64,000 bases of DNA from Nemertoderma westbladi (Eukaryota; Animalia; Xenacoelomorpha). The position numbers and the translations under genes are program-made. Shown in pieces: positions 8,031-63,930 of the stretch. The notes beneath the pieces were generated by a model. It ran no database searches, was not told the DNA's origin, and saw only the letters and a list, made by a program, of their open reading frames with translations. Positions within the stretch are counted from its first letter, which is position 1. The number at the start of each line of letters is the position of its first letter. The stretch is taken from contig JAUCBJ010004470.1 of the NCBI GenBank assembly GCA_032718475.1, forward strand, positions 57,788 to 121,787. The letters are read 5' to 3'.

Positions 8031-8031
8031 C

Positions 8032-30300: not shown

Positions 30301-31509
30301 CTCCAACCGGAGTAGCGCCTGCGTCGTCGAATCGGAGACGGTCGCCATGATGTCATCGGAGTCCGGGAGCGGCAGGTCGGGGTCGACGGCGGACAGATAG
30401 CAGAGCAAGGCGAACCGACGAACGCGAAGGCGTTCCAATACCTCAACGGAGTCTCGGAGGCGTTTATAGTGAAGCCGCTGGCCGTCGGCTGCGATGTTAC
30501 CAGATATCTTTACCTCCCTATCGATCTCTGTCTCGATCTCCTTGGAATACCTCTGGAGACTCGATACCAGCTCCTTCGAGGAGCTCCTCTTTGAATCCTC
30601 CTCTTTGAATCTCTCCTTCACGTAGATTAACCCGCTGCCTCGGTTGATTATCCCTACTAAGTTAACGGCGTCTTCCTCCGAGGCGGTTTGTATAAAGTAA
30701 AGATCGCCGGTAGCGGCGCTAATAGAGATGATATTGGGCCGCTTCTTATACTGAGCCTCGGGATATGATAAACAGCTGGAAATGTCGATGGATACCTTCG
30801 CTTTTCCGCCGCCAACCAGCACGGTATTGCTCGCAAACTCGCTATCAACTGCATAAAACAACAATTTAGTGCCACTCAGTATCGACCAATACTTTTTCCA
30901 CGACCTTCGAATTTTTGAGGCCATCTCAAGTTTTTGTTTGTTGTTATTTAACAACAACAACTTAATGTTTAACCACCCCAAGACAACGGTACTTGCTTCG
31001 CTTTGCTGTTCCTCGGGAATTTCGACGCAGTTACTTGAGAGAGAAGGCCCGTTTGAGTTTAATTCCGCTTGCGGGATACCCAACCCCGTTATTGAGCAGG
31101 AAGAAGTGCCGGTGTCGTCGCCACCACTAGCACTGAAATCCGACGATGTCGGTCGACTGCACGCGCTGTCGCTACTCCGAGAGTTTCTGTTTGAGGACAT
31201 CATGCTGTCGGTGTCTATATCGCGGAAGTGAACGTGTTGGCGTATCATGTGCTGGGATGGGTTGAGCTCGTTGTTACTCCCCCTTTCGGGTGCCCCTCCA
31301 TGTTGGACCGTGTCATCCCCAGTGCCGTCGAGTCCCTCGTCTGAAGGACTCGCGAGCACCTGCGACCGCTTTGGGTGGGCATTCTGTAGGAAACTATCCG
31401 ATGCGTGACGCGAGATGTGGGGGACTGACAGTTCACCCTGGTAAAATATTACGTCTTCAATTTCAGAGCCACAAACAGGAGAAGTACTGGTATGACGAAT
31501 TCGATTCAT
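27340..31509 (-). CDS. TIAM1: TIAM1/still life-family Rac guanine nucleotide exchange factor (PH-CC-Ex, RBD, PDZ, DH-PH), uninterrupted ORF
   Basis: PH (RRSWKKYWSILSGTKLLFY), coiled coil, RBD (KIKLPHNQW..V.V..GMT..QLLE..C.KRQMD), PDZ (YGFSI, IYITDVKPNSVA..LGL.VEDEVL.I), DH (ELRDTEALYTKDL, SYLIKPIQRLLKYPLFL), second PH (CFVFRQAIVLL, FLWELIH). The true start could lie further upstream. Confidence 0.92.
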   Translation of the reverse strand: MNRIRHTSTSPVCGSEIEDVIFYQGELSVPHISRHASDSFLQNAHPKRSQVLASPSDEGLDGTGDDTVQHGGAPERGSNNELNPSQHMIRQHVHFRDIDTDSMMSSNRNSRSSDSACSRPTSSDFSASGGDDTGTSSCSITGLGIPQAELNSNGPSLSSNCVEIPEEQQSEASTVVLGWLNIKLLLLNNNKQKLEMASKIRRSWKKYWSILSGTKLLFYAVDSEFASNTVLVGGGKAKVSIDISSCLSYPEAQYKKRPNIISISAATGDLYFIQTASEEDAVNLVGIINRGSGLIYVKERFKEEDSKRSSSKELVSSLQRYSKEIETEIDREVKISGNIAADGQRLHYKRLRDSVEVLERLRVRRFALLCYLSAVDPDLPLPDSDDIMATVSDSTTQALLRLETSSVTALHSLASVRDHGGYDDALETDPSAGHAAPLSGTQERPPVVWDHVLSPNKLAKIKLPHNQWTVVKVASGMTSKQLLEKCCAKRQMDSKNFFLRVKVSNNSEEDGTHSIPGSQTLLEDLKCREVEVKEKLFRLVSLKKSPTDKAYGFSIQPHFELDANTSDNRLRIYITDVKPNSVALRLGLAVEDEVLAIGDKPVTGLDVLYIEEIMQRESLTLILKTSTLVGDDGGSLPLSAVARGVARVACGAEDDFPVGVTSQEVDVLLEDIDAVVDILESSVRPLAELPEPAQLPEPAQPPPPPLNGAGKAARILYELRDTEALYTKDLSRFLEVYLLPGAALLDLGDPSAHFASLSLALNELVAFHASFHENLTDIIGLEDSCSNYTELPQFDQLLFRLAIQFKEICTGEAMLSCYSKFCDVYTKNSVVFHSYKENPKLQDFLLSCNPTGQHDVSPDSYLIKPIQRLLKYPLFLRQLLHLVESAGNPEPRRSLLEALAALEGVAIGINDIQYINSNYADVFEELLGEQDEMVVERLASADLVMFGSVYWLNSNEDLGGGKSSKPARYPLLHCFVFRQAIVLLVKEERSKKKTGSAGNNKNLSIKFRRLIPINNVQTQDGVNVDIEKKFLWELIHTGKVRERSRTDKVYKLCSKDLKSKSNFMKAIRREIKDHRKSKQKSGRSASLTASGDVQSSNVCSHARIKKLNVSERVPRRSSLPAPPAADPRRLPIGGNISLCHPAVDERLRVEDDILEHLADNSMDLESMMLWTEALCGGAEPEEGGVSYYHPGYQYYAGYRDPSWPLEEDAAVDCSSSDNSLNSEGFASNSASSSPRNWSGPNPPVASWSTPHPVPPLWGEVPRSHHSDELYLLQENLLGREGECSTCGMLNGGSTGAPHHHHRESTSAPHHGEPLHHHRPGALETRVLANSTVSVSDRLDQLLHIDASYLYCSSIFDRSSEVILPEVPSPIARLFAENTSFPRSDKIRYE

Positions 31510-32126
31510 TGCGTAAACACATCTAGACTACTGGACTAGCTGTACTCAGGTACTGGCGATATGATGGAAACGGCGATAGCTTACAATGTTGTTGACAGAT
31601 ATTACTGGATTATGGCTGTATGGTGGGTCTATCAGGGTGTCTATTGTACTGTCTGACTGTGGGCGTGGGGCAGGGCAGTGCAGCAGTGGACTGGTGGGGT
31701 AGTACGCCTATAATGTATAGTATAATTATATAAGGATGTGTGCAAGCAGATGTTGAAATATACAGATATAGGCTATATAACATTTAAGGCATAGGCAGAT
31801 AGGCAGTCGGGGAGAAGTTCAAATTTCAACTGAGTTGAAATTTAAAACTTTTTATTTTAATTCAACTTTTAAGTTGTAAATACAACTCTAAAATAGCAGA
31901 GGCTCAGAAGGGCCCCAAGAATTATTATTATTATTATTGTTTTTATGGATGTAACTCGAAAAATTAACCCTCATTACCGATGGAATAAAAACTTTCACCG
32001 TCGGGTATACTTTTTTTTTAAAACATTTTATTTAAGTGATTACATTTGCAAATTAGCTGAAATACTACGGGAATTTATTAGATGTATGAAATTACCGCTG
32101 TTTGTCATAATTATTATACAATGGAA

Positions 32127-35100
32127 TACCGTCGTCTGGGGTGAAGTGAAACAAAATTGTTGGTTTTTTTTAATTTTCTCAAATACATAATACTCCATAC
32201 AGCCGATTTTGAGGTGTTCAACAGGGAATATTACTTATAAGTAATATCAGAATGGTAATACAGATAAATCTGTTATTTCTATAGAAAAAGACAGCAAAAA
32301 GATGCTGTTTTCCAACTTTTTTTAAAAAAAGTATTGCTGTTCCACTTCACCTCATGGGATGGGGTGGGGTCAAGTGGAACAGGAGTGAAAGGCAGAAAGT
32401 TTGGCAATAATTATATATATTTTCCACTTATTACAGGTTATGTATGGGGTGGAGTAGAACAAAAATAAATATTTTTAAAAAACTCAAAATTCAAAAAAAT
32501 TACAAAAAAATCTAAATTTAGACAATTTAACTTTAATATTTAATATTGCTGGCCAACAGGCCCTATCTATAGTAAACACTAACTATTGACACTGTTAAAA
32601 CGATATCGATACAGTGCCCACTGGTTGCAGGGTTGTATTAATTGTAAACATGTATATTGCATATGGGACATTATTGCATAAAGTTAAAAATATTGCAAAA
32701 TTTACTAAAACTAAAATTAACAAAAGTAAAAGCAAATAATTAGGATTAACGTTTAACAATATTGCATATAGTACAGAACATTGCAAAATTTACTAAAACT
32801 AAAAGTAAGAAAAGTAAAAGCATATAATTAGGATTGATGTTTAACAATATTGCAGTTTATATTACAGCTATTAAGCAACTTTCATTGTTACAGTTACTTA
32901 TTGCGGGTTTGGCTGGGTCTGACTAAAGCATACCAATATTATGGGTGTAAGCTGAGTGAATTGCCTTTTCTGTGGCTGAATCTACTTTGTATGAGTTTCT
33001 ACTGATAGTTGGAATAAGGAGATCACCATACATAATTCCCAGGATATTATTTAGTGGCACTTTTGCCTTCTCAGCAATTGATGGCCAGAACCAAAACTTA
33101 TGATTATCCCGTAGCACTTGAGCCATAAAAGACACTTCTATGTCACCAGACTGCTCACAGATACGACAACTTCGCCAACATACCAATCTCTATCGTAAAC
33201 AACAGCCACAACTATGCCGACCTTGAAATCCTCCAATGAATTGAATTTCTGAAGAGCAATATTTTCATATCCTTTGTATGGTTCATTACATTCAAACTCC
33301 ACTGGATCAGTGCTACCACTGTCAGAGATACTAGATTGGTCTTCATCATGTGAATCTTTACTTCCATCAGTACTACTATCTTCTTCTGACTCTGCTATAT
33401 CTTGGCTGTGAAAGACAGGGGGGTGTTCAATCGTCCCTTGACTCGGACCCACGTCATCAGTATCATCCACGTGCTGGAGGTCCCTAAGACCAATGCGTCT
33501 TCCTGGCGGAACTGTAAGCTTCTTCTTGCGCTTGCGTCTTGGGTTTATCCCCTGCTAGCCTAAGTTCTTGGAGAACTTGAACAAATGCCTGGTCCATATT
33601 GCTTTCAATGCCCGCGTTCACAGTGTGGGGCAGTCTTGCTAACACCTGATTCCTATCGAGTGGAAATATTCCTGTCTTTCGAAATCCTGCTATTAGTGAA
33701 GAATTATTCACAATAGCCTCACCTGGCTCCTTTCCTGGTATAGGAATAAAACTTGAGTCTTCTTCTTGGAGCCAGATTATTAGTTTCTTTAATAATTTCG
33801 GAAATTGGTCCTTTGGCAGTGATGCTTGCCTCTTTCCTTCAGGGCTTTCTTTGAATGTAGTCAACATGGCCCGCCACTTACGTTTAAGAGGACCAAAGAA
33901 TGACACATCTAAAGGGTGCATCAGGTGTGTTGAATTTGGTATAAGGCAGATTAATTTTATATTGTATTCAACGCATTTGCTTATGACCTCAGGAACTAAA
34001 TGGCTCGATAAGTTATCTCCAATCAGGGCTTTGGGGACATTTTTCGGAAATCGCTTAAAGTAAGGCAGTGCAATCGATGTGAACCAGTCATTGAAGCAAC
34101 AAGCATCAAACCATCCTGATTTTGATCTATTATAACGTGTATTGCGTAACCCTCCCTCCATCCACTGGTCCCATAAGTTTTCTGACTTATATACAACATA
34201 AACAGGTAACAGTGTTCCTGTTGCACTTCCAGCCATCATAATGGAAATCGCTGACTTGGAAGAATTAATGACTCTTTCTGGGTATTTCACTCCTCTTTTC
34301 ACAACAACCTTCTTACGCCCAGGATCATCTGTTAGATGCTTTCATCATAGTTGACGATTCTTTCCGGAGCTATACCATCTAAGGCTTGAGTAAGGTTGTC
34401 GAAATACTCGTTTACAGGTTTATGGCTGGAGCATCAATAGCCGCCCTAACTCTTTTTATATTTTGACAAAGGCGATTACTCAGCACCATCTTGTGACGAT
34501 GAAGAAATGACCTTCCCCACTCCACACCAGGAACATTGTTGCAGAACTTTTGTATAACACGACCCTGTCTGTCTAAATAGGCCTTTGCCATATATCGTAT
34601 ATCAAATAGGGTCATAGGGAATCCCCACCCTGCACAAATCAGGTACAAACTGCCATAAGACCCCTGTTGTTGTTTGTGCACTTTTCTATATATCGTCGCC
34701 TTCGGTATATGGAACTCCTGCTCTATCTCCCTATACTGCTACCGGTATATGTTTTCCCAGCCAACTTGGCTCGAACAGCCCTCTCAACATCTTGATCACG
34801 GTAATTGCGAAAAGTCTTGGTACCAGGTATGTGCTTGTAAAATCTGACCATGCTTGGATGGAATAGGCTAAAATTCAAAGATATATATCAGATACCTGCA
34901 GTTGTCAGAGTCTTGTTTATTCAAATCCAGATTATCAAATAATGGAGGATAATCAAATAATAAAATAATAAGGATTTTACTTATCGTGCTTATAATTAAA
35001 TGATTAATTTTAATGTTTTACTGTACTGTTGCCACATCCGGCGTAATAAACAAATATACAGATATATAAATTATCAAATAAAGCAAAATTAGAAGCCTAC

Positions 35101-35453: not shown

Positions 35454-36391
35454 ACGGTCCGACGAATCTGTACAAAAAAGTACAATATAGTACAAAAGAG
35501 TACAATAAAGTGCAAAAATAGTACAAAAAGAGTGCAAAAATAGTACAAAACAGTACAAACGAGTGATAAACGTGTATACCAGTGTAGTATACACTACACT
35601 TGTATATAAATATAATTAATTGTAAGCAAATGCAACAGGACCGAAATATGCGCCGCTACAGTGTCAATCACTAGCGGCCTTGGTTCTGTGGTCAGTACGA
35701 AATAATTGACAGAACTTTGATTCATGTCGATTTTGACTGGCTTACAAGTAGAGATAGGCTACAGTCTGACAGTTCGTATAATAATATAATGTGTAATACA
35801 ATATACCTAATGCAATATACTATGCAGAGGGTACCGGTAGATAAAACTCCTCCTATAACTGAGACTCAAAATTTAGGTCATAGTCTTAAAGTAGGCTAGC
35901 CCATATACTGAAGGATAGACTGTATGCTACATTATGTAGGCTAGGTATGTCTGTCTGTATGTACACCTCTATCTGCAACTTTATTGAGTTCTCCCTCTGC
36001 AATTTTGCGTGCTTGGGACTGTTTTTTGTGTGTTTTGAACACAAAAGGCTGCATTAAAACTCATAAGATTGTATTGTAATAGGGGCACTCTCTGACTGCT
36101 AGACAGCTAGATCAGCCCCCGCTCAATGCATGCCTCGCCACACAAATCAGACAATGCTTTGTTTTATTTTGCACATTCTGACATTGTGTGCGCCCCTCTA
36201 AACGATTTGAACTACACTTGGATACACGTTTTGCAAGCATTCCTCACTCGTTTGTACTCTTTTGTACTATTTTTGCACTCTTTTGTACTATTTTTGCAAC
36301 TTATTGTACTCTTTCAGTCTTTTGTACTATCCACTATATTGTACTATTTTGTATTTTTTTGTACTTTTTTGTACAAATTCGTCGGACCCGT
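35454..36391. mobile_element. MITE/foldback with long TIRs built of gtacaaaa subrepeats
   Basis: acggtccgacgaatctgtacaaaaaagtac...agtgtagt versus actacac...gtactttttgtacaaattcgtcggacccgt. Confidence 0.75.
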
Positions 36392-42330: not shown

Positions 42331-42649
42331 ACTAGGAAAAGCGATAATTTTTTAAGACATAGGTATTGTGGCTTTTTTAAGAGTTGAATTTTCGGTGTAA
42401 TAACTTTTCAGTAAACAGTGACAAATAATAATAAATTTGTAGTTGAGGTTTGAGTTTAGTTATTGATGCAGAATAACTTGGTTGAGATTGAAGTAAAGAC
42501 TTGAAAGTTATGAATATTTGAGTGTGAGTTGTTGATGAATAATTCAAGTATGATCATATTAAATTATGTAAAATAAATTAATGCACACGATTTCTACTGA
42601 AGTTAAGTTGAATGCAAAAAGTTGTGGTGATGTTTTATTATTATAGTAT

Positions 42650-44210
42650 ATGGTCCCATATGTCCCATATAGGGTGTTTATGTCCCATACAGGGAGTTTT
42701 TGTCCCAAATAGCATGTAACATTCTCAAAATGATTTTACATAGTTTATAAATATAATGAAATACTCTAAGAAAATAGAATCCACTATCATAGCTTTAATT
42801 TAAATTTGTCCCGTTGTTTCTGTCCCATATAGGGTGTTTGTGTGCCAAATAGCGCATGACTTTCTCAAAATGATTTCACATAGTTTATAAATATAATGGA
42901 ATACTCAAAATAAAATATAATTCACTATCATAGCTTTAATTTAAATTTGTCCCAAATAGGTTGTTTGTGTCCCATATAGGCTGTTTGTGTCCCGTATAGG
43001 GTGTGAAGTGCTTATAATGATTTCAAATAGTTTCGAAATGTAATGGAATACTCAAAAGAATATAGAATTCATTCACTATCATAGCTTTCATTTAAATCTG
43101 TCCCAAATAGGTTGTTTGTGTCCCATATAGGGTGTTTGTGTCCCATATAGGGTGTTTGTGTCCCAAATAGCGTGTGACTTTCTCAAAATGATTTTAAATA
43201 TTTCTAAATCTCATGGAATACTCAAAAGAATATAGAATTCACTACCATAGCTTTAATTTTAATTTGTCCCAAATAGGTTGTTTTTGTCCCATATAGGGTG
43301 TTTGAGTCCCGTATAGGGTGTGAATTGCTTATAATGATTTTAAATAGTTTCGAAATGTAATGGAATACTCAAAAGAATATAGAATTCACTACCATAGCTT
43401 TATGTTCAATTTGTCCCAAATAGGTTGTTTTTGTCCCATATAGGTTGATTTTTGTGCCAAATAGCGTATGACTTTCTCAAAATGATTTTAAATAGTTTCT
43501 AAATATAATGGAATACTCAAAAGAAAATATAATTCACTATCACAACTTTAATTTAAATTTGTCCCAAATAGGTTGTTTGTGTCCCATATAGGTTGTTTGT
43601 GTCCCATATAGGGTGTGAAGTGCTTATAATGATTTCAAATAGTTTCGAAATGTAATGGAATACTCAAAAGAATATAGAATTCACTATCATAGCTTTCATT
43701 TAAATCTGTCCCAAATAGGTTGTTTTGTGTCCCATATAGGTGTTTTTGTTCCATATAGAGTGTTTGTGTCCCAAATAGCGTGTGACTTTCTCAAAATGAT
43801 TTTAAATACTTTCTAAATCTCATGGAATATTCAAAAGAATATAGAATTCACTACCATAGCTTTAATTTCAATTTGTCACAAATAGGTTGTTTTTGTCCAA
43901 TATAGGGTGTTTGAGTCCCGTATAGGGTTAAATAGTTTCTAAATGTAATGGAATACTCAAAAGAATATAGAATTCACTATCATAGCTTTCATTTAAATCT
44001 GTCCCAAATAGGTTGTTTGTGTCCCATATAGGGTGTTTGTGTTCTTATATAGAGTGTTTGTGTCCCAAATAGCGTGTGACTTTCTCAAAATGATTTTAAA
44101 TAGTTTCTAAATCTCATGGAATACTCAAAAGAATATAGATTCACTACCATAGCTTTAATTTTAATTTGTCCCAAATAGGTTGTTTTTGTCCCATATAGGG
44201 TGTTTGACTG
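42650..44210. repeat. Satellite of about 140-167-bp units, each with 20-bp subrepeats (tgtcccatatagggtgtttg)
   Basis: About 10 units of tgtcccaaataggttg...ggaatactcaaaagaatatagaattcactatcatagcttt; two subtypes are interspersed. Confidence 0.95.
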
Positions 44211-44211
44211 T

Positions 44212-45050
44212 ACCTTGACGAACTCCGTTCGTTAACATAAATGACTAGGAGTGGAAGCTGTTCCAGCGGACGCAACATGTTTGATTACTATAGATCCATA
44301 GCAGGGTTCGTAAGAAAAAAGGAGAAAACCCCTTCTTAATAAGTTCCAGAAATAGCTTGCACCATTCAACCATATCGAAGGCTTTCGATAGATCGAGAAG
44401 ACATCCAAATACAGGAGTTGCGTTTCTCGAATAGAAACCGAGAACCTCTGTAGCCGCCCAGGTACATTGGGACGTACTGGAACCACTTTGGAACCCGAAT
44501 TGCAACTCATCCAAATGTAAGCACTCAGCCTGCGAGATCTGCATGACCCACTCAAACAACTTAATCAGGAGGGAGGATAAAGCAATAGCCCTGTAATTAC
44601 TGGAAAGGGAATCGTCACCTAATTTATATTTTATCAAAGGAATAATGACACACGTCAGTAAGAACTGTGCAACAAAGCCATGAATGAGAAAACTGTTGAA
44701 CAAAACACTTAAATGTGAACATAATTCTCGAGGACCATTGATCAGGCAATCAGAATCAAAAGTTACGTCTGTTTTAGAGCTTTTTAGCCTACAGTATGTA
44801 GACCTTCACTGACCAAATCCCGAGTGATATTGCGGGAAATCAGCTGAATCACATCCTTCAAGTTTATCGGAAATCTGCGATCTTAAGAATTCTAAATCGG
44901 AATCATACGGTTGATTATATAGGTCTGAATATATACTGGCGAATCGGTCGGCTATCGATTGTGGGTCTGTACAACCATCAATGGTCGAAGTCACAGTGTT
45001 CGGTGTGGATCTAAGTTTCTTTATTTCTTTAAATATATCACTATTATTCC
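44212..45050 (-). mobile_element. CR1/L2-group LINE RT fragment
   Basis: IIPLIK...SSNYRAIALSS...LQFGFQ...ST...CLLDLSKAFDMV...C.VRWN...NGVRQG. Confidence 0.85.
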
Positions 45051-46779: not shown

Positions 46780-46975
46780 AAAGGCCAGGTTTGGCAGCTG
46801 TACATTAATCAGCTGACTCAGACCCTGAGCCAATCAGAGCCTCAGCTGTGGAGCCCAGTAATGTAGATATTGGATAGATACAATCATAAATAAGAATGGT
46901 GCAAGTCTGACTCCCAGGAGGGCTCCCAATAACACTTTGAATGGTTCTGTTTCACCATCAACAGTAGACAAAAAT
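46780..46975 (-). mobile_element. RTE LINE fragment, downstream half of the copy split by the BEL element
   Basis: STVDGETEPFKVLLGALLGVRLAPFLFMIV continues the RTE sequence at 58806-59320 across the insertion. Confidence 0.75.
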
Positions 46976-47639
46976 TGAGATGGGATCGGAGATCCTGACC
47001 GGGTTAGAAATGTACGCGTCACCGTTCTGCTGGGCAGTCGTGCTAGTTGCTTTGGCCGAAGGCCGTTGGGGAAAACAATAAGAGTTTCTGTTGTTTCTCA
47101 ATATTGATTAACGTAAACGATAATAGCATGTCGGTAGTGATACAGTTGTAATAGCAGAAAAATACAGATTAATTGCTCTTACTGGCGGTGACGGTCATTA
47201 ACTATGACCGGTCTGCACTGACTGGATAACTGAATCAACTGACCGGTAAATCAGTAATGTAGGATAATATATGGTTAACACACATGGATATTGATTTCAC
47301 CTCTTACTGTACTTTGGCCCTCTGTACCCAATGGATGCTTTCCTATCTCTAATCACGTGCTTCCCTCCCCACTATTGGCTAATATACTAATTGTCACTTT
47401 GGCACTCCCTGTGAGTGTTTCCCCCTGCTGCTAGCCTCTACTAGCTGTATTCCCTCCGAGGTGGTTTAACCTCTCACCTCTCTCTGTGGCTTTGGGACTT
47501 GTGTCGCCCCCCCCCCCTCCCCCAAATGTTGGTTATGAGACGAGATTAATATTGGTAATCTCATATCCCCAACATATTGCTAAAATGCCACTGGTCCCAT
47601 TTTGTGGTGGGTAATGAAGCAGAATTGAATCCGCTTACA
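46976..47639 (-). repeat. 3' LTR of the BEL/Pao element
   Basis: Direct repeat of 58145-58805; element sense TGTAA...TCTCA. Confidence 0.93.
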
Positions 47640-47650
47640 CTCCCCCCCAT
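47640..47650 (-). promoter_or_regulatory. Polypurine tract
   Basis: Minus strand ATGGGGGGGAG directly abutting the LTR TG. Confidence 0.85.
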
Positions 47651-47682: not shown

Positions 47683-48860
47683 TTAAGTGCCGTAATCCTC
47701 CCCCCTTATGTCCGCCTCTCTCTCGTCTGCTTCCCTCCTTTCTCGCCTGGCAACTTCTTCCAGATGCTTGTCCTCGACTCTATCTGCTTCTAGCTTCTCC
47801 CATCTCTTGTATGGTGTATCCACCTCTCTGTCTACTAGGTGCCGGCTGTTGTAGTACACCGACTCACCCTTCAGCTCCAGGTGGTCTACCAGACCTTTGA
47901 AGGCCACCTTAAATGCTCTTCTGTAGTTTAGAGGTGCTCCTGATAGCAGAATCGCCGTTGGCTCTCTTCTGATAACCACGGCCATGAATAGGTTTAGTAA
48001 ACCTATCATTATCCATCCTCCTGTAGAATATATCTCTTCTGATATATCTTTATCGCTCCTCTTCGGAACTGATACACCTCCGGTTTCCCTGGCCTCGCTC
48101 CCCACTTCAGCGAGTTCGCCAGCTCCACTCTGTACTCCTCCCGGAATTTACCCCAGTCCATTGGCTTGTGGCAGACGAGCCCCATGAGCTGACCCATCGC
48201 CACTGCTCTGCAATGTCCTGTGTTCTCTACCAATCCCAACCTGTCTGGCCCTGTCATTGCCATGTAGACCGCTTACATGTCCAGGATGTTGGGGGTCTCC
48301 AGTCCGACGATCCTCTCCGCATCGTCGCGGATCACCAATCCCACCTTTACCGTAGTCTTCTCCCTTACTAGGTCCTGCACCGCCCTTGGCAACCGGTTTA
48401 AATTAGGCCCGCTCTTCTTCCCGTAGTTTCCTAGATTGAATAGAAAGATTTCTCCATTTGGCGCTGCCAAAAGCAGTAGTATGGTTCTAGCCGATCCCGC
48501 CGACCCTCTTCTCGAGCCCTCGTCATCCTCCACAGTCCCCTCGTCATCTAGGACCACGTATCCGCCCCTATTCACAGACTCTACAAACCTCCTCCAGTCC
48601 TTTCTCGGTGGTTCCCTCGGATACTTCGGTATCCCAAACTTCGCTTCGTCTCCCTTCACTACATAGCGAAAATGGTCGAGGATCGCGTTATCCAGCAACG
48701 GTGTCCCGTAGGTCCCGACCAGTCATCTCTCGTGCATCTCCCTTAAGTGGTCCTGCAGCGCTCGCGCTTTGTGACCCTTTGCTAGTGGCTTGTAGTATCC
48801 CCTTGTCTTCTCTTCCGGATGCCTAGTATCTCCTTTCCACTCCTCTCCGTCTTTCTCATC
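47683..48860 (-). pseudogene. Extra ORF of the BEL element: DEDDy 3'-5' exonuclease (WRN/EXD/mut-7/RNase D-like), with in-frame stops and a 1-nt deletion
   Basis: Exo I YVVLDDEG; ILLLLAAPNGEIFLFNL; LPRAVQDLVREKTTVKVGLVIRDDAERI (Exo II); NILDM. Exo III YQKRYILQ(D) is restored by one T insertion near 48018, which also joins the frame ending at 47683. Start position approximate. Confidence 0.8.
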
Positions 48861-49522
48861 TTAACTAGTCTCTCCGCCATTACGAACTTCCTCGCTCGCT
48901 CACCTTCTTGGTGGTGCCTTACCAAAGGCTCAAGTAGATGAGTGACGTTTAGTAAGATGGTCTGTGTTAGTTCAGTAATGGCCTATCCCTTATGAATCCT
49001 AATTTGTACTATATTTTTACCTATATGTACCCCAAAGTGCCAACTTTTCCTAAATTTCCAAAATCTGTCCATTACTTTAGTTATAATTCTAGAATCCTCT
49101 ACCTACTGTTACAATAATTTGTCAGATTTTACTTCTAATACTATTTTATTCTCTGCTAGTGTGCTATTATCGGTTATGGCGGGTTATTTTTACTTAGATA
49201 ACCCCTATAGTTTGTATACAGGGAAAACTAGCTATTCTCTACTGTGCTACTTTCGTACCAGGCAACCTCCTGGCCCTGTATCAAACACCCTAAACTTACT
49301 CTATGGGACGTGCAGTACAGTAGTCTGTCTCGTGCGGCCTACATGTTCTATCCTGCTGTACCCACGTGCCCCCCTCTCCCTTTCGTGGTGCTCTCAATGT
49401 CCACAACCTCTACGGTACTACGTACCCTACTATTACTCTTATGGTATATCTATATACCATACTCTCTACTCTCTTACTACTAACTTTTACTAACTCTACG
49501 AACTCTAACTTCTAACTCTAAT

Positions 49523-49995
49523 GGTACTATGTACCCTGCCACTACTCTCGTGGTATGTTTATATACCACACTCCCTAACATCTAACTGCCTACGGTACTA
49601 TGTACCCTACTACTCTCGTGGTATGTCAATATACCACACTCCCTAACTTCTAACTGCCTACGGTACTATGTACCCTGCTACTCTCATGGTATGTCAATAT
49701 ACCACACTCCCTAACTTCTAACTGCCTACGGTACTATGTACCCTACTACTCTCGTGGTATGTCAATATACCACACTCCCTAACTTCTAACTGCCTACGGT
49801 ACTATGTACCCTGCTACTCTCATGGTATGTCAATATACCACACTCCCTAACTTCTAACTGCCTACGGTACTATGTACCCTACTACTCTCATGGTATGTCA
49901 ATATACCACACTCCCAAACTTCTAACTGCCTATGGTACTATGTACCCTACTACTCTCATGGTACGACAATGTACCACACTCCCTAACTTCTAACT
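49523..49995. repeat. 68-bp tandem array (about 7 copies), two hairpins per unit, inside the BEL element
   Basis: Unit ggtactatgtaccctactactctcgtggtatgtcaatataccacactccctaacttctaactgcctac; starts at 49594, 49662 and 49730 give the 68-bp period. Confidence 0.95.
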
Positions 49996-50076
49996 ACTTA
50001 CTTAGTGCTACATACTATCTATTACTAATACTTTCTAACTTTCTACTAACTCACTTCTTATTTTATTATTTGTTTA

Positions 50077-53000
50077 TTATTTTTTATATTTTGTGTGGGA
50101 AGGGCATCTCGCCCTCATTCCCACCCCCCTCAGTCCAACATTTTGGACGACTAAACTCAAAGGTGCCCCTTCCAAAAGGCAGCACTTTCCTACAGCCCTC
50201 CTGTAGGTCTTCCTATCTTTTGCTCCTATCTTGCCTCCTATTCTCACTTCCACCGACCGGACTCTTCCGTCCTCGTTGGGGTAAGTATCTACCACTCTCG
50301 CTAGTCTCCACTGGTTATTGATAATTGTGTCGTCAGTGATGATTACCAAGTCACCTTTCTTCATCTCCCTAATGGTGTTTCTCCACTTACTTCTCCTATG
50401 TAACGTCGGAAGATATTCCTCTACCCATCTCCTCCAATACTCAGCACTTATTGCCTTGGCGACTTTCCAACTTTGACGGGAGTGTATGTCATCTGGGTCT
50501 ACACCCCGCATGTCGATGGTCGCCGGCCTCTCCATCAGAAAGTGTCCCGGTGTTAGCACGTCCAGTGATTCCCGGTCGTCATTCTCTGGATATAGCGGTC
50601 TGCTATTAATGATCCCCTCGCACTTGGCTAGTACCGTTCTTAATATGTCCTCTGTGACCATGTGGGTGTTCATCAGCTTGGTCATTAAACGCTTAGAACT
50701 TCCAACAAGTCTCTCTACACATCCTATCGTATGTGGCGCATACAGCGTCCTCCTTTCCTACTTTAATTGCCGTCTCCTCATAGCCGCCCTGACATCGTCT
50801 CCCTCTTGGATGTCGAAGGCCTCGGCCAACTCGTTCTCAGCTCCCACGAAGTTGGTCCCGTTATCTGAATATATCACCGTGATCGTTCCCCCTTTGTGGT
50901 TTACAAATCTTTCTAAGGCATTAATGAATGCCGATGCCGTGGCATCCTGCGCAAGTTCTATCCCCACCGCTCTTGTGTTGTTGCATACGAAGATAATGCC
51001 GTAGCGTTTCTCCGTGTGCTGCATCACCTTTATCTTAATCGGCCCGAACATGTCCACGCCACAGTGCGTGAATGGTGGGTCGTGTTGTCTCACTCTATTG
51101 GCCGGTATTGGTGCCATCTCCTGTACGGCCCTCTCCTTTCTCGTCCGTCGGCAGGTCTGGCACTGCCCCACTACGACCTTCACCTTCTTCCTAAGTTGCA
51201 TGATCCAGAATGTCCTTCGTATCTCTGTGAGGATCTGATTCGTGCCTCTGTGTAGTATCGACTTATGCGAATCCCAAATGATCTGGTGGACTATCTGTGA
51301 TTTGTTAGGGATTATTATGGGTTTTGGTGGGATAACTAGGCTGTTGTTGTTCACCACTCTGGAATTCATCACCAGAATCCCGTCATCGTTCAACTACAGA
51401 TTGAGTTCACTGTCTCGACGAAGGTGTTGTTGCTTGCTAACTCTGTCCACTTCGTCGGCGTAGTTCTTTCTCTGCTCGTATTGTATTACGGCTCTAGCCG
51501 CTCCTTCCAGATTGATGGTTGGTTTCCTTTTGGCATCCTTGCCAACTCCCCTAAGGAAATCCCCGTAGGCCCTCCAATACGCTACCAACTTCTTAGTCTT
51601 ATACCAGCTGAAGCTCTCACTGAGCAACCTATCCGTCGGGTTATTGCATGGTTCTTCTGATTTTGGTGGCATCTCCTTGACCTCCCCCACCATCTGGCAG
51701 TATATCTCTTCCCCTTCTGAATCCCCCCCCCCCTCTTCTGCTACTACTTCCTCTGAGCCCGGGTCCACCTTCCTCATTTGTGGCCAGGCTGATCTATCAT
51801 TCAGGAAGTGTGGTCCGTGCTGCCACAACCCTTCCTTCTTTAAGAAAGTGTGGCCTGCCACGCCCCTCGATAACAGATCTGCTGGGTTGTCGTCGGTAGG
51901 GCAGTAATGCCACCTTTCTAGGTCAGTCGTCACCCTTATCTCATCTACCCTATTTGTGACGAATATAGGGTATCTCGTCTTCTCGTTATGTAGCCACCCT
52001 AGCACTACCATGGAGTCCGTCCATTTGTGTGTCTCCACTATATTGGGTATAGTCTCCATCAAGTAGGCTGTGGCCCTTACTCCTAACCTCGCAGATGTCA
52101 GTTCGAGTTTTGGGACTGATGCTGAATCTGGTGGCGTCGACTTTGCTTTACTAAATGCAAGTCTGGGCTTATGAGCCCCCTTTCGCTGTACCAGATAAAG
52201 TGCCGCTCCATATGCTTCCAAGGATGCATCGGAAAACATGTGTAGATCCAGGTCCGTCATGTCTCCATCCGGGAAATACACGCATGGCATGGTGTACGTC
52301 CCCCATCTGCTCCAGACTCCTCCGTATCCCACTCATCCTTTAACTTGTATATTTTCTTTAGTATCTGTTTCCCCATGACTAACAATGGGGATGCTAGGCC
52401 TAGGGGATCGTAAATCCTTGCTATGTACGATACATAGCCCAGCTTGGTGTGGATCTCTGCACCCTCTTGGCTCAGTGGATACTCCAACTCATCCGTCTCA
52501 CGGTTCCACCCGATCCCTAGCGCCTTCTGCTGAGACTCCACTCTCTTATTCACAATATCCTGCCCCTTTGCTGTTGTGGGGTTGTCCATGGTCGACTCTG
52601 GTCGCCTGTCTTCTATGGCTTTCATGAATTCCTCTGAGCTGGACTGGAACTTAGTGAGGTTGAACCCGGATCCTTTTAGGATGTCGCAAACCTCGCTCCC
52701 TATTTCCAGTATTTCTTCAATCGTGTTTCCAGATCCCATCCCATCGTCTACATAGAAACCGCATCAAATCATGTCAATCACCTTCGCACGATACTCTCCT
52801 TCTTTGCCCTCCACCGTATCTCTCACAGCCATAGCTGTCGTAAATGAGGACGACTTGGCCCCCATGTTCTGCACCACCATTTTGTACATCGGTATCTCAG
52901 ATAGTTCTTCGTCGCCGTTGTACCATAGGAAGCGCTAACTGTCGCTGTCCTCTTCCGCCTGCCTTCAATGTTGCATGTGAAGCACGTGCCTCCCATTTCT

Positions 53001-56000
53001 AAATCTCAACAAGACCTCTATCCCCGAGTTGTAAATGTTGGGGCCCTCCAGCAGATAGTCGTTCAGGCTCTTGCCATTCGTTTTGGCCGATGCATCGACC
53101 ACCATCCGCTGTTTACCCTTCTTTGGGTGTAAAGCCACATGGAGTGGCACATAGTAGGTCCTGTCCGTGTTTGGTTTGTCGACCGGTAACTCCATGGCCC
53201 ATCCCTTCTCGACGTATTTCTTAATTGTCTTGTGGATGTACTCATCCTTCTCTGGGCTCCGCCTGAGCGTCTGCTTCAGCTTGCGAAGCCTCGTGAGTAC
53301 CATCGCTTTATTATCTGGCAACGGTAGCTTAGGTTGTTTCCACACCATCCCTATGGTGTACCGTCCCCCTTCACACTTCATCGACTCCTTTACACTTTCT
53401 ATCGCTTGTTTATCCTCTACCGAGGTTCCGACCCCGGCCTCCTTCAATCCTGCGAAGTCCTGCTTCAGCAGCCTCTTAAGCTGCTCCTCTGCTCCTTTAT
53501 CCTCCATCTCCCTCATTGTCCCTGCGAACATGCACCCTGATGTCTCCGACATCCTGAATGGAATCTTGGTTTTGATTGGGCCGCTAAGCATCCATCCGAA
53601 CGGCGTGAGAATCGCCATTGGATCGTGCTGCCTGTTCTCTCTGAAAATGGTCCGTACTCTCTCGTGGGCCATCGGACAGTCCATTTCCACTATGATGGAT
53701 ACCTTTGGGACATCCACTTCCGGTATCGAGAAATCGATATCGTCCAGGAATCAGTATTGATCGAGCTCGATCTTAGTGGGTCGCCTGGCATTTAGGTTAA
53801 TCGATTCTATTATTTGTATGGGGTCGATGATCACCCCATAATCACATCCTGGTGCTATTGCTGATATCTCGCACTGTCCCGTCCTCATCTGCAGGACCTC
53901 ATCCTTGCTCGAGATAGTAGTTACCGCCATCCTACTCGGCCTCGTTTGTAACCTTATCTCCTCGGCCACCCAATTCTCCACCAGCGTGAAAGCTGCTCCG
54001 CTGTCGACCAGCATCAATGTTGTGACTGATCGACCGCTTTCTCCCATCACCCTGACCGGTACCACCCCGAGTAGTGCCGTTCCCCTTCTCTTCATTCCTA
54101 TGGTGCTTGTCGGCATCGTTTGGCCTCTGCCTTGACCGAATTTAATTGGTGTCTCCTTACATTGTTCAGCCTTGTGTCCGCCGATGACAGATTGATGACA
54201 GATTTCACTTTTGTTCACATATTCTACCTGGTCTTGTTTGGGTAACGCTTGCCAATACTTGCAGTTCATGGTCTGATGGAGTGCGTTAGAGTGTAGTTAG
54301 CATTTGTTTCTCGGATTATAGCCTTCCCTATACAGCGCGCTGCGTATCGCACATATATTCAAACTTAGCTCTCTGGTGTTCTTATTATTTGGGTTTGGCC
54401 TACTGGGCGTGTTGGGGTTATATTTATTTGTGTTATTATTTTGTCCTTGTCCATGCCACGGTGTGGCCCTACCCCCGGCTATCTGTGGACTAGCAGTTCC
54501 CTGCGTCGTCGCATATGGAAGCGATTGTCTCAGCTTTGGTAACGCATTTGCCGCCCTCCCCAGACTATCCTCACTGTAGACTGGGTCCGTGATTAGCTCC
54601 GCTTTGTAATTGAGGAAATTCAACATTTCCTCTAGGCCCGGTTCCGCACCTTTCTTCTCCCGGGTGGAGAAGGCGATCTTCCTCCACTTGTTTCTTAGCC
54701 AGATTGTGGTGATGTTATTCGATGCGTTGAGTTCGTAAGGCGCATCCAAGGTCTTCAGCACAATCAGTGCCTTTTCGACCTTATTCGCGAAAGTCTTGAT
54801 ACTGACAGGGTTATCCTGTAGGCCAACTGATGTTATTCCCCTCAAGGTTTGCCGAATGATCTTGGCAGGGTGTCCATATTCCCTGTCTAGGGCCCGCCAT
54901 GCAGTCGTGAATCCACCCTCGATACCTTGATACTGCCTTACGATATGCCTTAAGCGCATCAATGAGTGTTGCCATTCCCATCGCCTGTGCTTCTAGTAGG
55001 CTCGATTGATGCTGTACAGACTCTCCCATTGCTGGGTGCGGTTTGCCCGTCGGGCCTGTCGACCTCTTTTGTGTCGGATATATCATTGGGGGTAATGGTC
55101 CCCTCCATATCTCTGTATCGCATGATTTATTTTGGTCCAAGGGGTTCGGGGTTTTTGTTTTGGGTATATGTTATATCCCTGCATATTATAGTCATACTGG
55201 TGTGCAGGTACCAGTATAGGCCTATCCACTTCTTGCCTACCTACCGGTATGTATGCCGCGACTTCCGGGTCTAATCCCGTTGTCCGCGCACCCTATCGCC
55301 TACACTATCTCTTCCAGCATGGCCTATAGTATGTGCAGTAAGGCATACAGTATGTCCTACAGTCTGCCTGTGTCCTTCCGGACCGAAGTTTAATCTTCTC
55401 GAATATTCCAAGAAGTCCTCCCCGCGACTACTGTACTCTCGATTTGCAGCTATGTCCCTCCGGGAAGTTTATCTTCGATCCCCCCTTCTGTCCTCGTCTT
55501 CGTACTGGTACATCCTGTACCCTTCTCCCGGTGTATGGTATATCTCACCAGGCTGCGTCTTTCCAGGATGACGGCAATCTCCCGGAGTTCGACCCCACTG
55601 ACTCTCTAACTCCATTTCTACTGCCGACGGTTCACTGTCCGTCCTTGCTCTCCGGTTGCTCGTAGCAACGCTTCTTCTATTCTCTTCACTTCTTCTCTCT
55701 TCAGCGTAGTGATCCCCTTCGTGAGATCTCTCTTTGACCTCCCGGATAAACTCCACTGTTCTTCTTCCGTCTTCCGACTGGGATCGACGTCTTGTTGCTT
55801 GCCCGCTCACGGCGCCAACCTCTCTATCCCTACCCAGTTGGACGCTCCTGGGGATACTCGCAATCCCCCTACTATACTCTGTCGTCGGGTACCGCGGTTC
55901 ACCTAACTCGCCCCGCGCATTATCTGCCGACGCTTGTGGGACATTCTCTGCCCCCCCCCTCTCGCCACTGATCTCTCGTGGTGGGGTGCCCGTAGCCCCC

Positions 56001-58085
56001 CCCCCCCCCATCCGCCACCTCTTACTTCGCTACCTCCTACTTCGCTTCTAAGCCCCTCTCTAGTCGACGCACTATCTCTACTCCGACTGGGTCTACTCAC
56101 CCCCGCCTCTTCCTGTGTGACTGCATGGCCTTGCAGGCTCACGTCGGGTTGACTCACCCCCGCTACTCCCTGCCTAACTACGTGGCCTTGCAGGTTCCCG
56201 TCGGGTTCACTCACCCCCACTACTCCCTGCGTAACTATGTGGCCTTGCAGGCTCTCGCTGGTCGGACCACCTGTCTCCCCTACGTTCATATTAATTGCAC
56301 CGTTATTCATAATGTTATTTTGATTAATTTCTCCGGGGTTATTATCTGACGCAACATTATTATCTAAGTTATTTAAATTGCTTAAATTATTTTGTTCAGA
56401 ATTAGGGCTATTATTTGGAATATTCTGCACATTTAAATTAGAATTATTTGGATTATTTTGCACGTTTAAATGAGTATTATTTGGATTATTTTGTACGTTT
56501 AAATTAGTATTATTTGGATTATTTTGCACATTTAAATCAAAATTATTATTACCGGGTAAAATATTATTTCCTGCAACAAAGGTCTGATTAGGGTTGTCTA
56601 CTACGGTACTATTAATATTAATTCCTTCTAACGTATTATTATTACCCCCACCCCCCAGTCCTTTGGTATTTTACACCAAGTAAAACCCAAGTTTACACCA
56701 GTCCTGGGTCTGTTGTCCGGTGCCTGTAAGTGGGGTGTTAACAAACGTTTCCATTACTTCTGGCTCCTCGTAAACACTACCCGAACGAGCCTCACTCTCC
56801 GATAATCCCAACTTCGCCAGTTCCAACCGGCGCTTTTGCTTCGCCTGGTATTGCATAAGCCCTGGGTATGCATATCATCCCGCATACGCTTTCCCGCTCT
56901 CTCTCTCCCTCTATCCTCTCTCAAACTTTGGTCGGCCAACTCTGCCTCTCTTGCAATCCTCTCAACCCTCCTCGCCTCACGATCCTTGCGCTCATTCGTT
57001 TCCCTCTCAATTATTTCAGCCTCTCGCATCTTATGCTCGCTTTCCAGTCTTGCCTACCGCTCCTCGCGCTCTTTGCAATCGCTTGTCTCTCTCGACTCTC
57101 GCTCTCTGCCCTCCCTCATTTCTCTCTCCTCACCCTCTCTAAAGTTTAGCGCCACCCTCTCGGCTCCCTCTTTACACTCTCTCACTAAATCTCTCTTTCT
57201 CTAATAACGCGGTTCCCTTGTCCAGTTGCCTCTCCAGCTCCTTCTGATCTAGCGCCACAAGGTCTAATTGACACACCAGATATATCTCTAACACCCTTCT
57301 TGCTTCTGCGGTTTATGTAGCGGACTTATCGGTCGCAACGGACTCCCATCGCTTCTCTGTCCTACTGATTTTCCCCCACTTTCTGGGGTTCTCACTGACC
57401 GACGACACCGAATCCTTGGGGTTAACCTCGGGTTCACCGTCGTGCGGGTCCGCCAAACCCACTAACTTAATTCCCCTAGCATCCACTAAGTAAGGCCCTA
57501 CGTACACTACCTCTGGCTCCATTACCCCAGATCGCCACAATTCAAACAGTTCCGTGGCGACCCCCTCGCTCTCTCACTCGCCAGTTCTCCCTGTCCAAAA
57601 CGGACTAAATAGCAAAAGTGTTTATTTGACTCACCTAGCCTCAGGTATAGTTTAGGCTGGTCTACCTTTTTCCCTTCCTTGGCCTCCTTAAGTAGTTTCT
57701 TGGTGGTGTTGTAGGCCCGTCGTAGCCGATCACTCGTCCCGACATCCTCTTCGCTGACTCCGCCTCCTCTCCTCATCCAGCGTCGTACCGGCGGCCTCAC
57801 CATCGCCGTTCCGGTGTGCCGTCCGTCGCCCTCAGCCTGTGTCAGGCCGGCGACTTCGGTATTCCGACCGCCGTCGTCGTCGCGCGTCGACTTGTCTCCC
57901 TCTCTCCTTCGTAGTTGACGGCCGCCCTCCGCTTGGGCTACCGGATCGTCCCTCGTCGGCGAATCTGGCATGGCTGGCCAATACCATCGCGTTGCGGCCT
58001 CACGGATCATTTGGTTGGTGTCGCCCGGGGTCCGCGGCGGCGTCCTCTCTCCCTCTGATAATCGGGGCGTTCTTTCTTCTGCCAT
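50077..58085 (-). pseudogene. BEL/Pao gag-pol polyprotein, disrupted
   Basis: Long charged/Asn-rich gag; AWRAL..EYG.P; protease LVDSGA; P.AILTPFGWMLSGP; RT YYVPLH, R.VVDASAK..G.SLND.L..GP, FYVDD; YDPLGLASP; RNase H LHMFSDAS..AYGA, LELTS, WTDS.VVL.W, NPADLLSRG; integrase HHCC, GVDMFGP, IYSDNGTNFVGA, INSRPL, LTPGHFL, W..W..EYL..L..R.KW. Confidence 0.95.
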
Positions 58086-58144
58086 CTTTCTGTCTCCTTG
58101 CAGTCACAGTTTTTAGTTGGCAGTTAGACTCGGTAGTTAATGAC

Positions 58145-58805
58145 TGTGACGGGATCGGAGATCCCGACTGGGTTAGAAATGTACGCATCACCGTTCTGCT
58201 GGGCAGTCGTGCTAGTTGCTTTGGCCGAAGGCCGTTGGGGAAAACAATAAGAGTTTCTGTTGTTTCTCAATATTGATTAACGTAAACGATAATAGCACGT
58301 CGGTAGTGATAAAGATGTAATAGCAGAAAAATACAGATTAATTGCTTTTACTGGCGGTGGTCATTAACTATGACCAGTCTGCACTGACTGGATAACTGAA
58401 TCAACTGACAGGTAAATCAGTAATGTAGGATAATATATGGTTAACACACATGGATATTGATTTCACCTCTTACTGTATTTTGGCCCTCTGTACCCAATGG
58501 ATGCTTTCCTATCTCTAATCACGTGCTTCCCTCCCCACTATTGGCTAATATACTAATTATCACTTTGGCACTCCCTGTGAGTGTTTCCCCCCACTGCTAG
58601 CCTCTACTAGCTGTATTCCCTCAGAGGTGGTTTGACCTCTCACCTCTCTCTGTGGCTTTGGGGCTTGTGTCCCCCCCCCCCCCCCCCCCCAATGTTGGTT
58701 ATGAGACGAGATTAATATTGGTAATCTCGTATCCCCAACATATTGCTAAAATGCCACTGGTCCCATTTTCTGGTGGGTAATGAAGCGGAATTGAATCCAC
58801 TTACA
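58145..58805 (-). repeat. 5' LTR of the BEL/Pao element
   Basis: Element sense TGTAA...TCACA; direct repeat of 46976-47639 with scattered substitutions and small indels. Confidence 0.93.
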
Positions 58806-59320
58806 AAAATGTTGTCGAACCATCGTATACTGATTTGATTGCTGCAACAATTTCACCAGGAATCCCATATAATGAAAGTATGCTGAACATACGTGAGCGA
58901 GAGACTCAATCAACCAAAGATGACATCCATATCTGAATCTGTCTTTCTGTTTTGATAACTCTTCAATTATCCTTCTATGTGCCAAAATGGGCTCCATGGT
59001 CCCACGACCTTTACGGAACCCATTCTGATTTCCACGGAGCAGTCTCTCAATGGGATCCCTGATGCGATTTAATATAATTATAGTGTATAGCTTTGCAGCA
59101 ATCGAGATCAATGAGATTCCCTGAAAAGAACCATAGAGTGTTCGGTTGCCTTTCTTGGGAACTGGCACCAACTTATTTGTTTTCATTTCTTGTCGAACTT
59201 ATTGTCATTCTGTACATTTCTACTATGATGGGATAAATAATCTGCAAACACTCAGGTATTTTAATGACCTCAGGGGGGACACCATATACTCTACTGGTAC
59301 AATTGGCCTTAATGCTCTTT
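58806..59320 (-). mobile_element. RTE LINE fragment, upstream half of the BEL target
   Basis: MKTNKLVPVPKKGN...LRGNQNGFRKGRGTMEPILAHRRIIEEL, close to the 12869-13129 copy. Confidence 0.85.
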
Positions 59321-61934: not shown

Positions 61935-62429
61935 GTGTCGCGATATCGTCATAACGAATTGAATGAGAACTGGAGTAAAAATAATTCAGTTATTTTTATG
62001 TATTTATTGATGGTCTAATAGTTCATTATTGTAATTTCTCTACTGATACAGTATAAAGTTTTTACAGTAGAAAATTGACATACGTTTAGAAATGCCGCCT
62101 CCTTGTATCTCCATTGTAGTTGCACCTCTGACAGAGAAACAGCTATTTTTTCTAGAAGCCTATGTACTATGTACTAACTAAATGGCTAATAAGTACGTAC
62201 AACTGCTTACTTCGTCACTCGCTCCATACCTAGCTTAACTATTGGTAAATAGATAAAAATAAATGATATTTGATTTTGTTTTCATCATCACCACCACGCT
62301 GTACACTCAGCCATGGTTACGGGTTGTAGCATTGGTGGAGGATTCATGTAGGGCCTACTGTATACAGTTATATATTATTATTAGAGATTTTGAATCCGTT
62401 AATAAACACGATTATATCCAATCTAAATT

Positions 62430-63256
62430 ATATGTGGCTGGCCACGAGAAAAGGGACCTTATGTCGCAAAACCTGATTCTGAGATAATCGCGTTTAAAGT
62501 TTCCCTCTATTTTTGAACAAATTTAATTGGATTATCGATTTAGAAATGTATAAAACGATGAGGGAAATTCAAATTGGTTCTGATATTCAATATACCTAGG
62601 AAATAACTAATTATAGGAAGCAATATAAGATGTTGCAGTGTTGTATATAACACTGTCTTAGGGTTTTCATGTCTGAATTTAGGACTGTAATAAATTGTAA
62701 TTGTACTACTGTAATATGTAGGTACTGTAGGCTTTCATTTTTTCCTTCAATTTGTCTGTTATTTTTTAAATGCAATATGGCTGTCATTTTTTGTAAAATT
62801 TTGTAATCCCAATAAAGAATTCAAAATACAAATAATTTTAAATTTTGTTAAAAAAATTTATCTTTTTGAAAAAATGTTAAATAAAAAAAATTTTTTTTGG
62901 TTGCATGTTTTTTTGAAATTTTTTTAAAATAGTTCATTAACAATATTAATAGTTTCAAAGTGTTAAAAGTTTTATAAAAAGCCGAATAACATTGAGTTGC
63001 CTAACTATATAGTAAGAATTGCTATCATATTATTAATATTTTCCATTTTTTCGCTTATTATAACCGCTATTAATAAAATTTTTTTTGCTACCCGATCCAC
63101 CTTCACATAAATCGCTATAACTTTCTTTTGGAAATAGATATTGAGACACCGTTTTTTTTGTTAAAATCTCTGGAAAATTCTGCATCTCATAGGCCTAATA
63201 ACTCAAAATCGACCTCCGGTGACATAAGGTCCCTTTTCTCGTGGCCAGCCACATAT
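62430..63256. mobile_element. MITE with perfect TIRs of about 36 bp
   Basis: atatgtggctggccacgagaaaagggaccttatgtc ... gacataaggtcccttttctcgtggccagccacatat. Confidence 0.9.
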
Positions 63257-63374
63257 TATTATAATCATGATACGATAGCAGAACCATTACAGATTAATTA
63301 CTATGTTAATATTGTACAGTAAATTATTACATTATACACTGTAGTACATTATAACAAAAGATTAACAATATTTG

Positions 63375-63930
63375 TTACATAGTAGAGCAAACGGTTGTCA
63401 GTAGGTTAGTGGGACACGTAAAGGACGTGGGTACATCGTAGAGAAAACGGTTGTCACATAAGTAGGCTAGAAGTAGGACACGTAGGGGACGTAGGTACAG
63501 CACATCGTAGAGGAAACGGTTGTCACATAAGTAGGCTAGAGGGACACGTAGGAGACGTGGGTACATCGTAGAGGAAACGGTTGTCACATAAGTAGGCTAG
63601 TAGGACACGTAGGGGATGTGGGCACATCGTAGAGGAAACGGTTGTCACATAAGTAGGCTAGTGGGACACGTAGGGGACGTGGGTACATCGTAGAAGAAAC
63701 GGTTGTCACATAAAGTAGGCTAGTGGGACACGTAGGGGACGTGGGTACATCGTAGAAGAAACGGTTGTCACATAAGTAGGCTACACCCCCCTAGAAGTGG
63801 GACACGTAGGGGACGTGGGTACAGTACATCGCAGAGGAAATGGGCCTAGTTGTTACATAAGTAGTGGGACACGTAAGGGACAGTGTTACACCATAGAATG
63901 AATGGTTCTTACATAAATAGTGGGACATCT
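63375..63930. repeat. Tandem repeat, unit about 60 bp
   Basis: gggacacgtaggggacgtgggtacatcgtagaggaaacggttgtcacataagtaggctagt repeated about 8-9 times with small indels. Confidence 0.95.

Follow-up and report, generated by a model that had tools for sequence, protein, structure and literature searches.

A BEL/Pao retrotransposon of Nemertoderma westbladi with a predicted self-priming site next to its 5' LTR

We found that a BEL/Pao LTR retrotransposon of 11.8 kb, lying on the minus strand of a 64,000-nucleotide stretch of Nemertoderma westbladi DNA (the window), carries directly after its 5' LTR a segment whose exact complement lies inside both of its LTRs, and we consider it probable that its family uses part of its own RNA to prime minus-strand synthesis, in the manner of Tf1. 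The segment, GTCATTAACTA, occupies 58144-58134 at offset 0 from the end of the 5' LTR (terminal CA at 58146-58145), and its complement stands at 58370-58360 and again at 47204-47194, the perfect complementarity spanning exactly 11 bases. The transcript would fold back such that the LTR segment ending at 58360 pairs with the 10-11 bases that follow the 5' LTR; cleavage just 3' of 58360 would leave a free 3' hydroxyl, and the first templated base would be the last base of the LTR. The cutting enzyme would likely be the RNase H of the element, which we assume by analogy with Tf1, where, according to passages of PMC7175516, the first 11 bases pair with the PBS (primer-binding site), and the RNase H cut falls between bases 11 and 12. 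All features are collected in Table 1.

Table 1. Features of the element, listed in the direction of its transcription; positions are those of the window.
Feature	Positions	Strand	Description
Target-site duplication ATTTT, 5' side	58806..58810	-	5 bp
5' LTR	58145..58805	-	661 nt, TG...CA; flank break points of other copies confirm the end
TATA-like box (the LTR has two)	58430..58437	-	motif scan
Initiator-like TCAGTT, candidate start 1	58403..58408	-	predicted; A at 58406, 31 nt from TATA-like box
Initiator-like YAGTY, candidate start 2	58366..58370	-	predicted; A at 58369, where the 10-base core begins
Predicted self-primer	58360..58370	-	exact complement of primer-binding position; in 5' LTR, 3' end at 58360
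U5 hairpin adjoining LTR end	58151..58165	-	stem 58165-58160 with 58156-58151; loop TCC in element sense
Primer-binding position	58134..58144	-	offset 0 from LTR end; core 58135-58144 largely kept, 58134 variable
Indel-rich leader spacer	58113..58133	-	11 of 12 listed indel rows, 7 substitution sites
Distal leader block	58097..58112	-	no listed substitution
First open frame	57522..58085	-	starts at first ATG past leader; without Pfam family
gag fragment, DUF1759	54297..54992	-	Pfam E 5.9e-5, under curated cut-off
Degenerate Cys-His boxes and aspartic protease (DSG)	53751..54296	-	frames and Pfam
Reverse transcriptase region, fragmented, with YVDD	52257..53750	-	translation; Peptidase_A17 N-terminal match
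RNase H region (DAS)	51394..52332	-	Pfam Peptidase_A17, E 9.7e-19
Integrase, stop inside	50077..51393	-	H2C2, D-62-D-49-E, DUF5641; Pfam and motifs
Extra 3' reading frame, stop inside	48012..48722	-	candidate DEDDy-type 3'-5' exonuclease; motif by eye
Polypurine tract	47640..47648	-	9-base purine run, abuts 3' LTR
3' LTR	46976..47639	-	664 nt, TG...CA, 95.8% identity with 5' LTR
Identical 11-mer in 3' LTR	47194..47204	-	sequence match
Target-site duplication ATTTT, 3' side	46971..46975	-	5 bp

The class assignment is carried by the proteins and not by the primer site. Pol runs in the order protease, reverse transcriptase, RNase H and integrase, and the Pfam domains along the element follow the BEL/Pao order (DUF1759, aspartic protease, Peptidase_A17, Integrase_H2C2, rve and DUF5641, the last with E 1.6e-25), the Pao-type domains being Peptidase_A17, DUF5641 and, under its cut-off, DUF1759. 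The DSG, YVDD, DAS and DD(49)E motifs, a set given for Sinbad in passages of PMC554778, are all present, and together with the domain order they uphold the sequence-only reading, which had called this a BEL element. A chromovirus-type Pol as in the Ty3/gypsy Tf1/sushi lineage was not found, the Pol of the element being of BEL/Pao type. Judged by its translated sequence, the element is a divergent BEL/Pao: its RNase H region is 28-46% identical to the best 150 representatives listed, none of these exceeding 46%, and in a small RNase H tree of weak support its branch is long. No relative turned up when viral contigs were scanned with the integrase or with an RNase H alignment. The copy is decayed, with frames disrupted by stops and frameshifts and with two degenerate Gag Cys-His boxes recognized by eye near 54296, against the triple box expected; the LTRs differ in 28 alignment columns, none of them within the 11-mer. 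The regions around these domains hold a Cys-x2-Cys knuckle-like motif that closes the first frame (57522-57560, minus strand), an Asn-rich stretch with 33-bp repeats ~3 kb ahead of DUF1759 (55903-56670, minus strand), and, in the interval from the integrase to the extra 3' frame, tandem repeats with a 68-bp unit (49473-50084).

The element adjoins a LINE-like RVT_1 fragment (58806-59198), of which a 96% identical copy lies at 12863-13106, and the window further contains a DDE_1 transposase fragment (33484-34341, minus strand), inverted-repeat pairs resembling DNA transposon ends (35456-36388, 62426-63260 and 17128-19869) and satellite-like arrays at 25756-27200, 42633-44223 and 63370-63920, with periods of ~22, 147 and 61 bases, respectively. 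A Tiam1-like GEF (27340-31527, minus strand, 1395 codons) and CPEB1 (8014-9822, plus strand, 602 codons), genes that usually have introns, each occupy one uninterrupted frame; among 120 proteins listed for CPEB1, none is more than 70% identical to it.

The LTR end, on which the pairing register depends, was placed at 58145 by the ungapped alignment with the 3' LTR, by the ATTTT duplication and by the flank break points of other copies, with 7, 11 and 8 contigs in three runs entering unrelated flanks there. The register abuts the LTR terminus just as had been proposed from the sequence alone. An alternative LTR end 4 bases inward (CA at 58142-58141) was excluded by the LTR alignment and the flank break points. 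The tRNA PBS that had been reported missing after the 5' LTR is indeed missing: the first 60 leader bases contain no TGG, the first one lying 60 bases in, and no 18-nt PBS for tRNA-Arg or tRNA-Gly is present there. The exact 11-nt complement, likewise described before, recurs in the 3' LTR, and the 11-mer was matched 3 times within the window against an expected 0.07. From base composition, an 11-base complement is expected by chance at ~2.5e-4 per LTR, while 2 of the 10,494 other internal 11-mers (one overlapping site) have an LTR complement. The feature is real and non-random, it sits in the exact priming register, and, as in Tf1-type elements, the bases adjoining the 5' LTR can pair with a stretch of the LTR itself.

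The core of this site is largely retained by other copies of the host species. The family is abundant, with 817, 1179 and 906 contigs on 701 bases in the three runs (two samples), and we aligned contigs from these runs to 58085-58205; the contigs are unphased and include dead copies, rare variants drop out of them, and their depth does not equal copy number. Eleven of the 12 listed indel rows (41 in total) fall at 58113-58133 and none of the 12 within 58135-58144. The 15 substitution rows cover seven spacer sites (58125-58133), position 58134 with two changes (the commonest of which retains a U-G pair), four LTR-side sites (58151, 58157, 58165 and 58169) and, inside the core, 58138 in one contig and 58139 recurrently, leaving 8 of 10 core positions without a listed substitution. 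As summed contig depth falls 3- to 4-fold from the bin 58135-58139 to 58130-58134 in all three runs, and four contigs of run X2 diverge just behind 58135, the kept unit is the 10-base core 58135-58144. The conservation claimed for the 11-mer thus holds in full between the two LTRs, which are identical there, but across copies it extends to 10 bases. Position 58139 is changed in 6, 8 and 5 contigs, amounting to 141/1260, 180/1660 and 198/903 of the depth (11-22%). This change counts against self-priming, as it breaks the sixth, central pair of the helix unless 58365 changes too; on the LTR side, none of the 40 variant rows listed (of 293) falls within 58352-58390. Also counting against it, a few X2 and X3 contigs join gag-proximal sequence to 58142-58143 across ~74 unaligned bases, and because these contigs stop aligning in the leader at that point, other versions of the primer site are probable, with some subfamilies probably differing within it. 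In favour of self-priming, one contig of a more divergent sample follows the LTR from 58575 down to 58359, where it has a loose end.

For comparison, 90 loci were fetched by RNase H searches and 57 examined, of which 33 were left out for having no LTR pair or no clean 5' LTR end; the other 24 loci, in nine LTR families, serve as controls, these being distant relatives, many from one assembly. TGG occurs within 5 bases of the LTR end in seven of the nine families and at +18 in one, while one has none. In none of the nine families does a perfect complement to the own LTR exceed 7 bases, the longest found, and the 11-base self-complement signature is therefore not found in ordinary BEL elements. 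A scan of 12 loci, among them the closest ones in the tree, found no self-complementary site at a verified LTR end; the nearest element in the tree (L034; support 0.77, in a weak tree) has a TGG motif after CA, upstream of its first long ORF, at a candidate LTR end. A DNA-pattern search matched 4 stretches, none of them LTR-like by blastn. Within the control set, the TGG primer site 18 bases past the LTR end was seen in L065 (6471-6500) and L066 (6475-6500), which belong to one family, and two complete BEL elements with target duplications, L082 (6487-12359) and L083 (6250-12444), stand in records titled as bacterial MAG contigs and are likely host DNA inside a MAG assembly.

A non-TGG site could also be served by a host small RNA, with the LTR match being secondary; the most plausible such RNA would be a half-tRNA produced by cleavage within the anticodon stem, a reading that we regard as unlikely. 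Such half-tRNA priming occurs in Ty1/copia lineages, where wobble inosine pairs with A, U or C, and the plant Ty1/copia element Bianca uses a half tRNA-Ile with inosine (passages of PMC6317226). Our element resembles Bianca in having a non-TGG primer site and in tolerating a change at a possible wobble position, but Bianca needs no LTR-internal complement, and half-tRNA priming would leave the perfect copy inside both LTRs unexplained. No Rfam match was found in 57900-58900, no tRNA gene in the 64-kb window, and no tRNA-Ile in 44 control loci (4 tRNA predictions, none of them Ile). Read as an anticodon arm, the complement does present an Ile anticodon: the variable 58139 then falls on the wobble base, and the loop is closed by a G-C pair. 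This register presumably needs a G at position 37 and departs from eukaryotic tRNA-Ile at positions 30 and 32, and registers other than Ile would break the pyrimidine-U loop rule, both of which count against a half-tRNA; by such tRNA rules, the rest of the Ile register fits poorly.

RNA folding is consistent with the proposed helix. In the fold from 58370, the primer helix closes the minimum-energy structure (z -2.95), and none of 200 shuffles was equally stable. Its mean pair probability was 0.93-0.99 for starts at 58369-58371 and 0.87-0.96 for a start at 58406, the pair probabilities across starts 58369-58371 and 58399-58440 ranged over 0.83-0.99, and the helix was weaker for a start at 58500 (0.61-0.76). 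With starts at 58376-58390 it was unstable, varying from 0.07 to 0.96 with the end point as a local hairpin or other folds competed (0.08-0.41 at 58376, with the local hairpin as competitor); the LTR 11-mer also lies within a local hairpin that pairs 58375-58370 with 58364-58359. An imperfect duplex of 58407-58360 with the first 44 leader bases reaches -32 kcal/mol. Its part beyond the 11-mer (58407-58371 with 58133-58101) outdoes 990 of 1000 sequences shuffled by single bases. When dinucleotides are shuffled it outdoes 892 of 1000, with 108 as good, so that by this measure the longer duplex is not significant, and its middle falls in the indel-rich spacer.

Two further structures had been read from the sequence at the junction. 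The gggatc-gga-gatccc hairpin was recovered, with its stem formed by 58165-58160 and 58156-58151; its inner five pairs carry no listed substitution, whereas 16-36 contigs differ within its loop. The most frequent variant (58157) and a listed insertion (58156) fall inside this loop or border on it. Tf1 shares with this element a U5 stem-loop next to the primer site, reportedly the subject of a 1998 paper by Lin and Levin. The 8-bp stem of 58103-58110 with 58143-58150 is real too, but it would form in place of the primer helix, not alongside it, because 58143-58144 are common to the stem and the 11-mer. The distal leader block (58097-58112) has as possible partners the LTR end (58150-58143), the 58385-58364 region and the CAGTT repeats at 58407-58394, and this block and the U5 hairpin may position or gate the primer helix.

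These alternatives make it conceivable, if improbable, that the pairing is a functional RNA structure (serving packaging or dimerisation, or switching translation together with the distal leader block) and not a primer. Two of the three possible partners of the block overlap the primer helix, which is switch-like, and part of the family has the central mismatch at 58139 unless it is compensated. Yet the helix stops precisely where the LTR does, in the one register required for priming, and a non-priming structure has to be squared with a leader that offers no TGG in its first 60 bases.

The length of a self-primer would depend on where transcription starts. The LTR contains 2 TATA-like boxes and 5 YAGTY motifs, and the spacing 58437-58406 has an estimated chance of a few percent. 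On these motifs, a start at 58406 appears slightly favoured over 58369; the primer would measure 47 nt from 58406 and 10 nt from 58369, and with the former its geometry would not be that of Tf1. The start at ~58370 implied by the sequence-only reading is thus only one of two candidates. Splicing need not be invoked to make the primer, since its core is uninterrupted in both LTRs. As AATAAA was not found in either LTR, the R region is undefined.

The same primer might obtain its 3' end by trimming of a short capped or full-length transcript, possibly by the product of the extra 3' frame and not by RNase H, which seems to us very unlikely; similarly unlikely is a 47-nt capped RNA from 58406 that would zip along the whole leader and have its 3' end set at the LTR terminus by a 3'-5' exonuclease of the element (the extra 3' frame) in place of RNase H, which would be a tRNA-free route different from that of Tf1. 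The presence of the 11-mer in both LTRs, neither of which has an AATAAA, fits trimming, and the extra frame shows a pattern that we take to be of DEDDy type and is weakly EXD2-like, its best structural lead being EXD2 chain 6k17 (E 1.4), so that a DEDDy-type 3'-5' exonuclease is a weak lead for its identity. Against trimming, the frame gave no Pfam match and no homologue in the protein search, and use of the 3' LTR copy as primer would be expected to complicate strand transfer. DEDDy-type ORF3s are present in bdelloid LTR elements, where they are suggested to process the 3' ends of element RNA (passages of PMC5408684).

That the pairing is a chance match or an old inverted duplication without function is the least probable reading, for which the two other internal 11-mers with an LTR complement, the many elements covered by a genome scan and the decay of this copy can be cited, but against which stand the offset-0 register, the missing TGG site and the finding that other copies keep the core next to a spacer full of indels. 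The element class, the missing tRNA 3'-end site and the non-random complement in priming register are shown; self-priming, as proposed by the sequence-only reading, is favoured by the controls and by the conservation within the family, and is overall partly supported. Transcription across the segment, formation of the helix, the cut and the enzyme that makes it are predictions.

With Tf1 and Tf2 of Schizosaccharomyces pombe and Tj1 of S. japonicus, the element shares ~11 LTR-derived bases complementary to the PBS and the absence of a tRNA, but those elements belong to the Tf1/sushi group of Ty3/gypsy whereas this one is a BEL/Pao and not a chromovirus, and self-priming is experimental in Tf1 and a prediction here. 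Passages of PMC4600332, PMC7175516, PMC6317226, PMC3601003 and PMC5443660 describe self-priming for Tf1, Tj1 and the Tf1/sushi group and predict it for plant Tcn1 and TAR. For TAR (Houba, Osr-1; Ty1/copia) and Tcn1 (Ty3/gypsy), lineages of other superfamilies and another kingdom than our element, it was likewise predicted from PBS-LTR complementarity, a signature that occurs in more than one superfamily (passages of PMC6317226).

Compared with the Belpaoviridae (Tas, Sinbad, BEL, Pao), the element has the same domain order, the DSG, YVDD, DAS and D-49-E motifs and TG...CA LTRs; it also has the short polypurine tract of canonical members and a 5-bp target duplication as in the control loci, and differs from them in the absence of a tRNA PBS, in its size of 11.8 kb and in the long extra regions on its 5' and 3' sides. 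Another BEL element, Cer7 of nematodes, reportedly encodes its own tRNA-like primer. According to the ICTV profile, Belpaoviridae have an 18-nt PBS for tRNA-Arg or tRNA-Gly and genomes of 4.2-10 kb, BEL/Pao being described as host-tRNA primed and their replication as poorly understood (PMC8742986). PMC3118150 mentions primer, PBS and tRNA nowhere, and a literature search that had most subscription journals outside its reach returned no published self-priming BEL element. If true, our reading would place self-priming in a third LTR superfamily, pointing to its repeated origin or deep ancestry. It would presumably let the family escape control exerted via tRNAs and their fragments, and it would account for BEL copies that annotation tools list as PBS-less.
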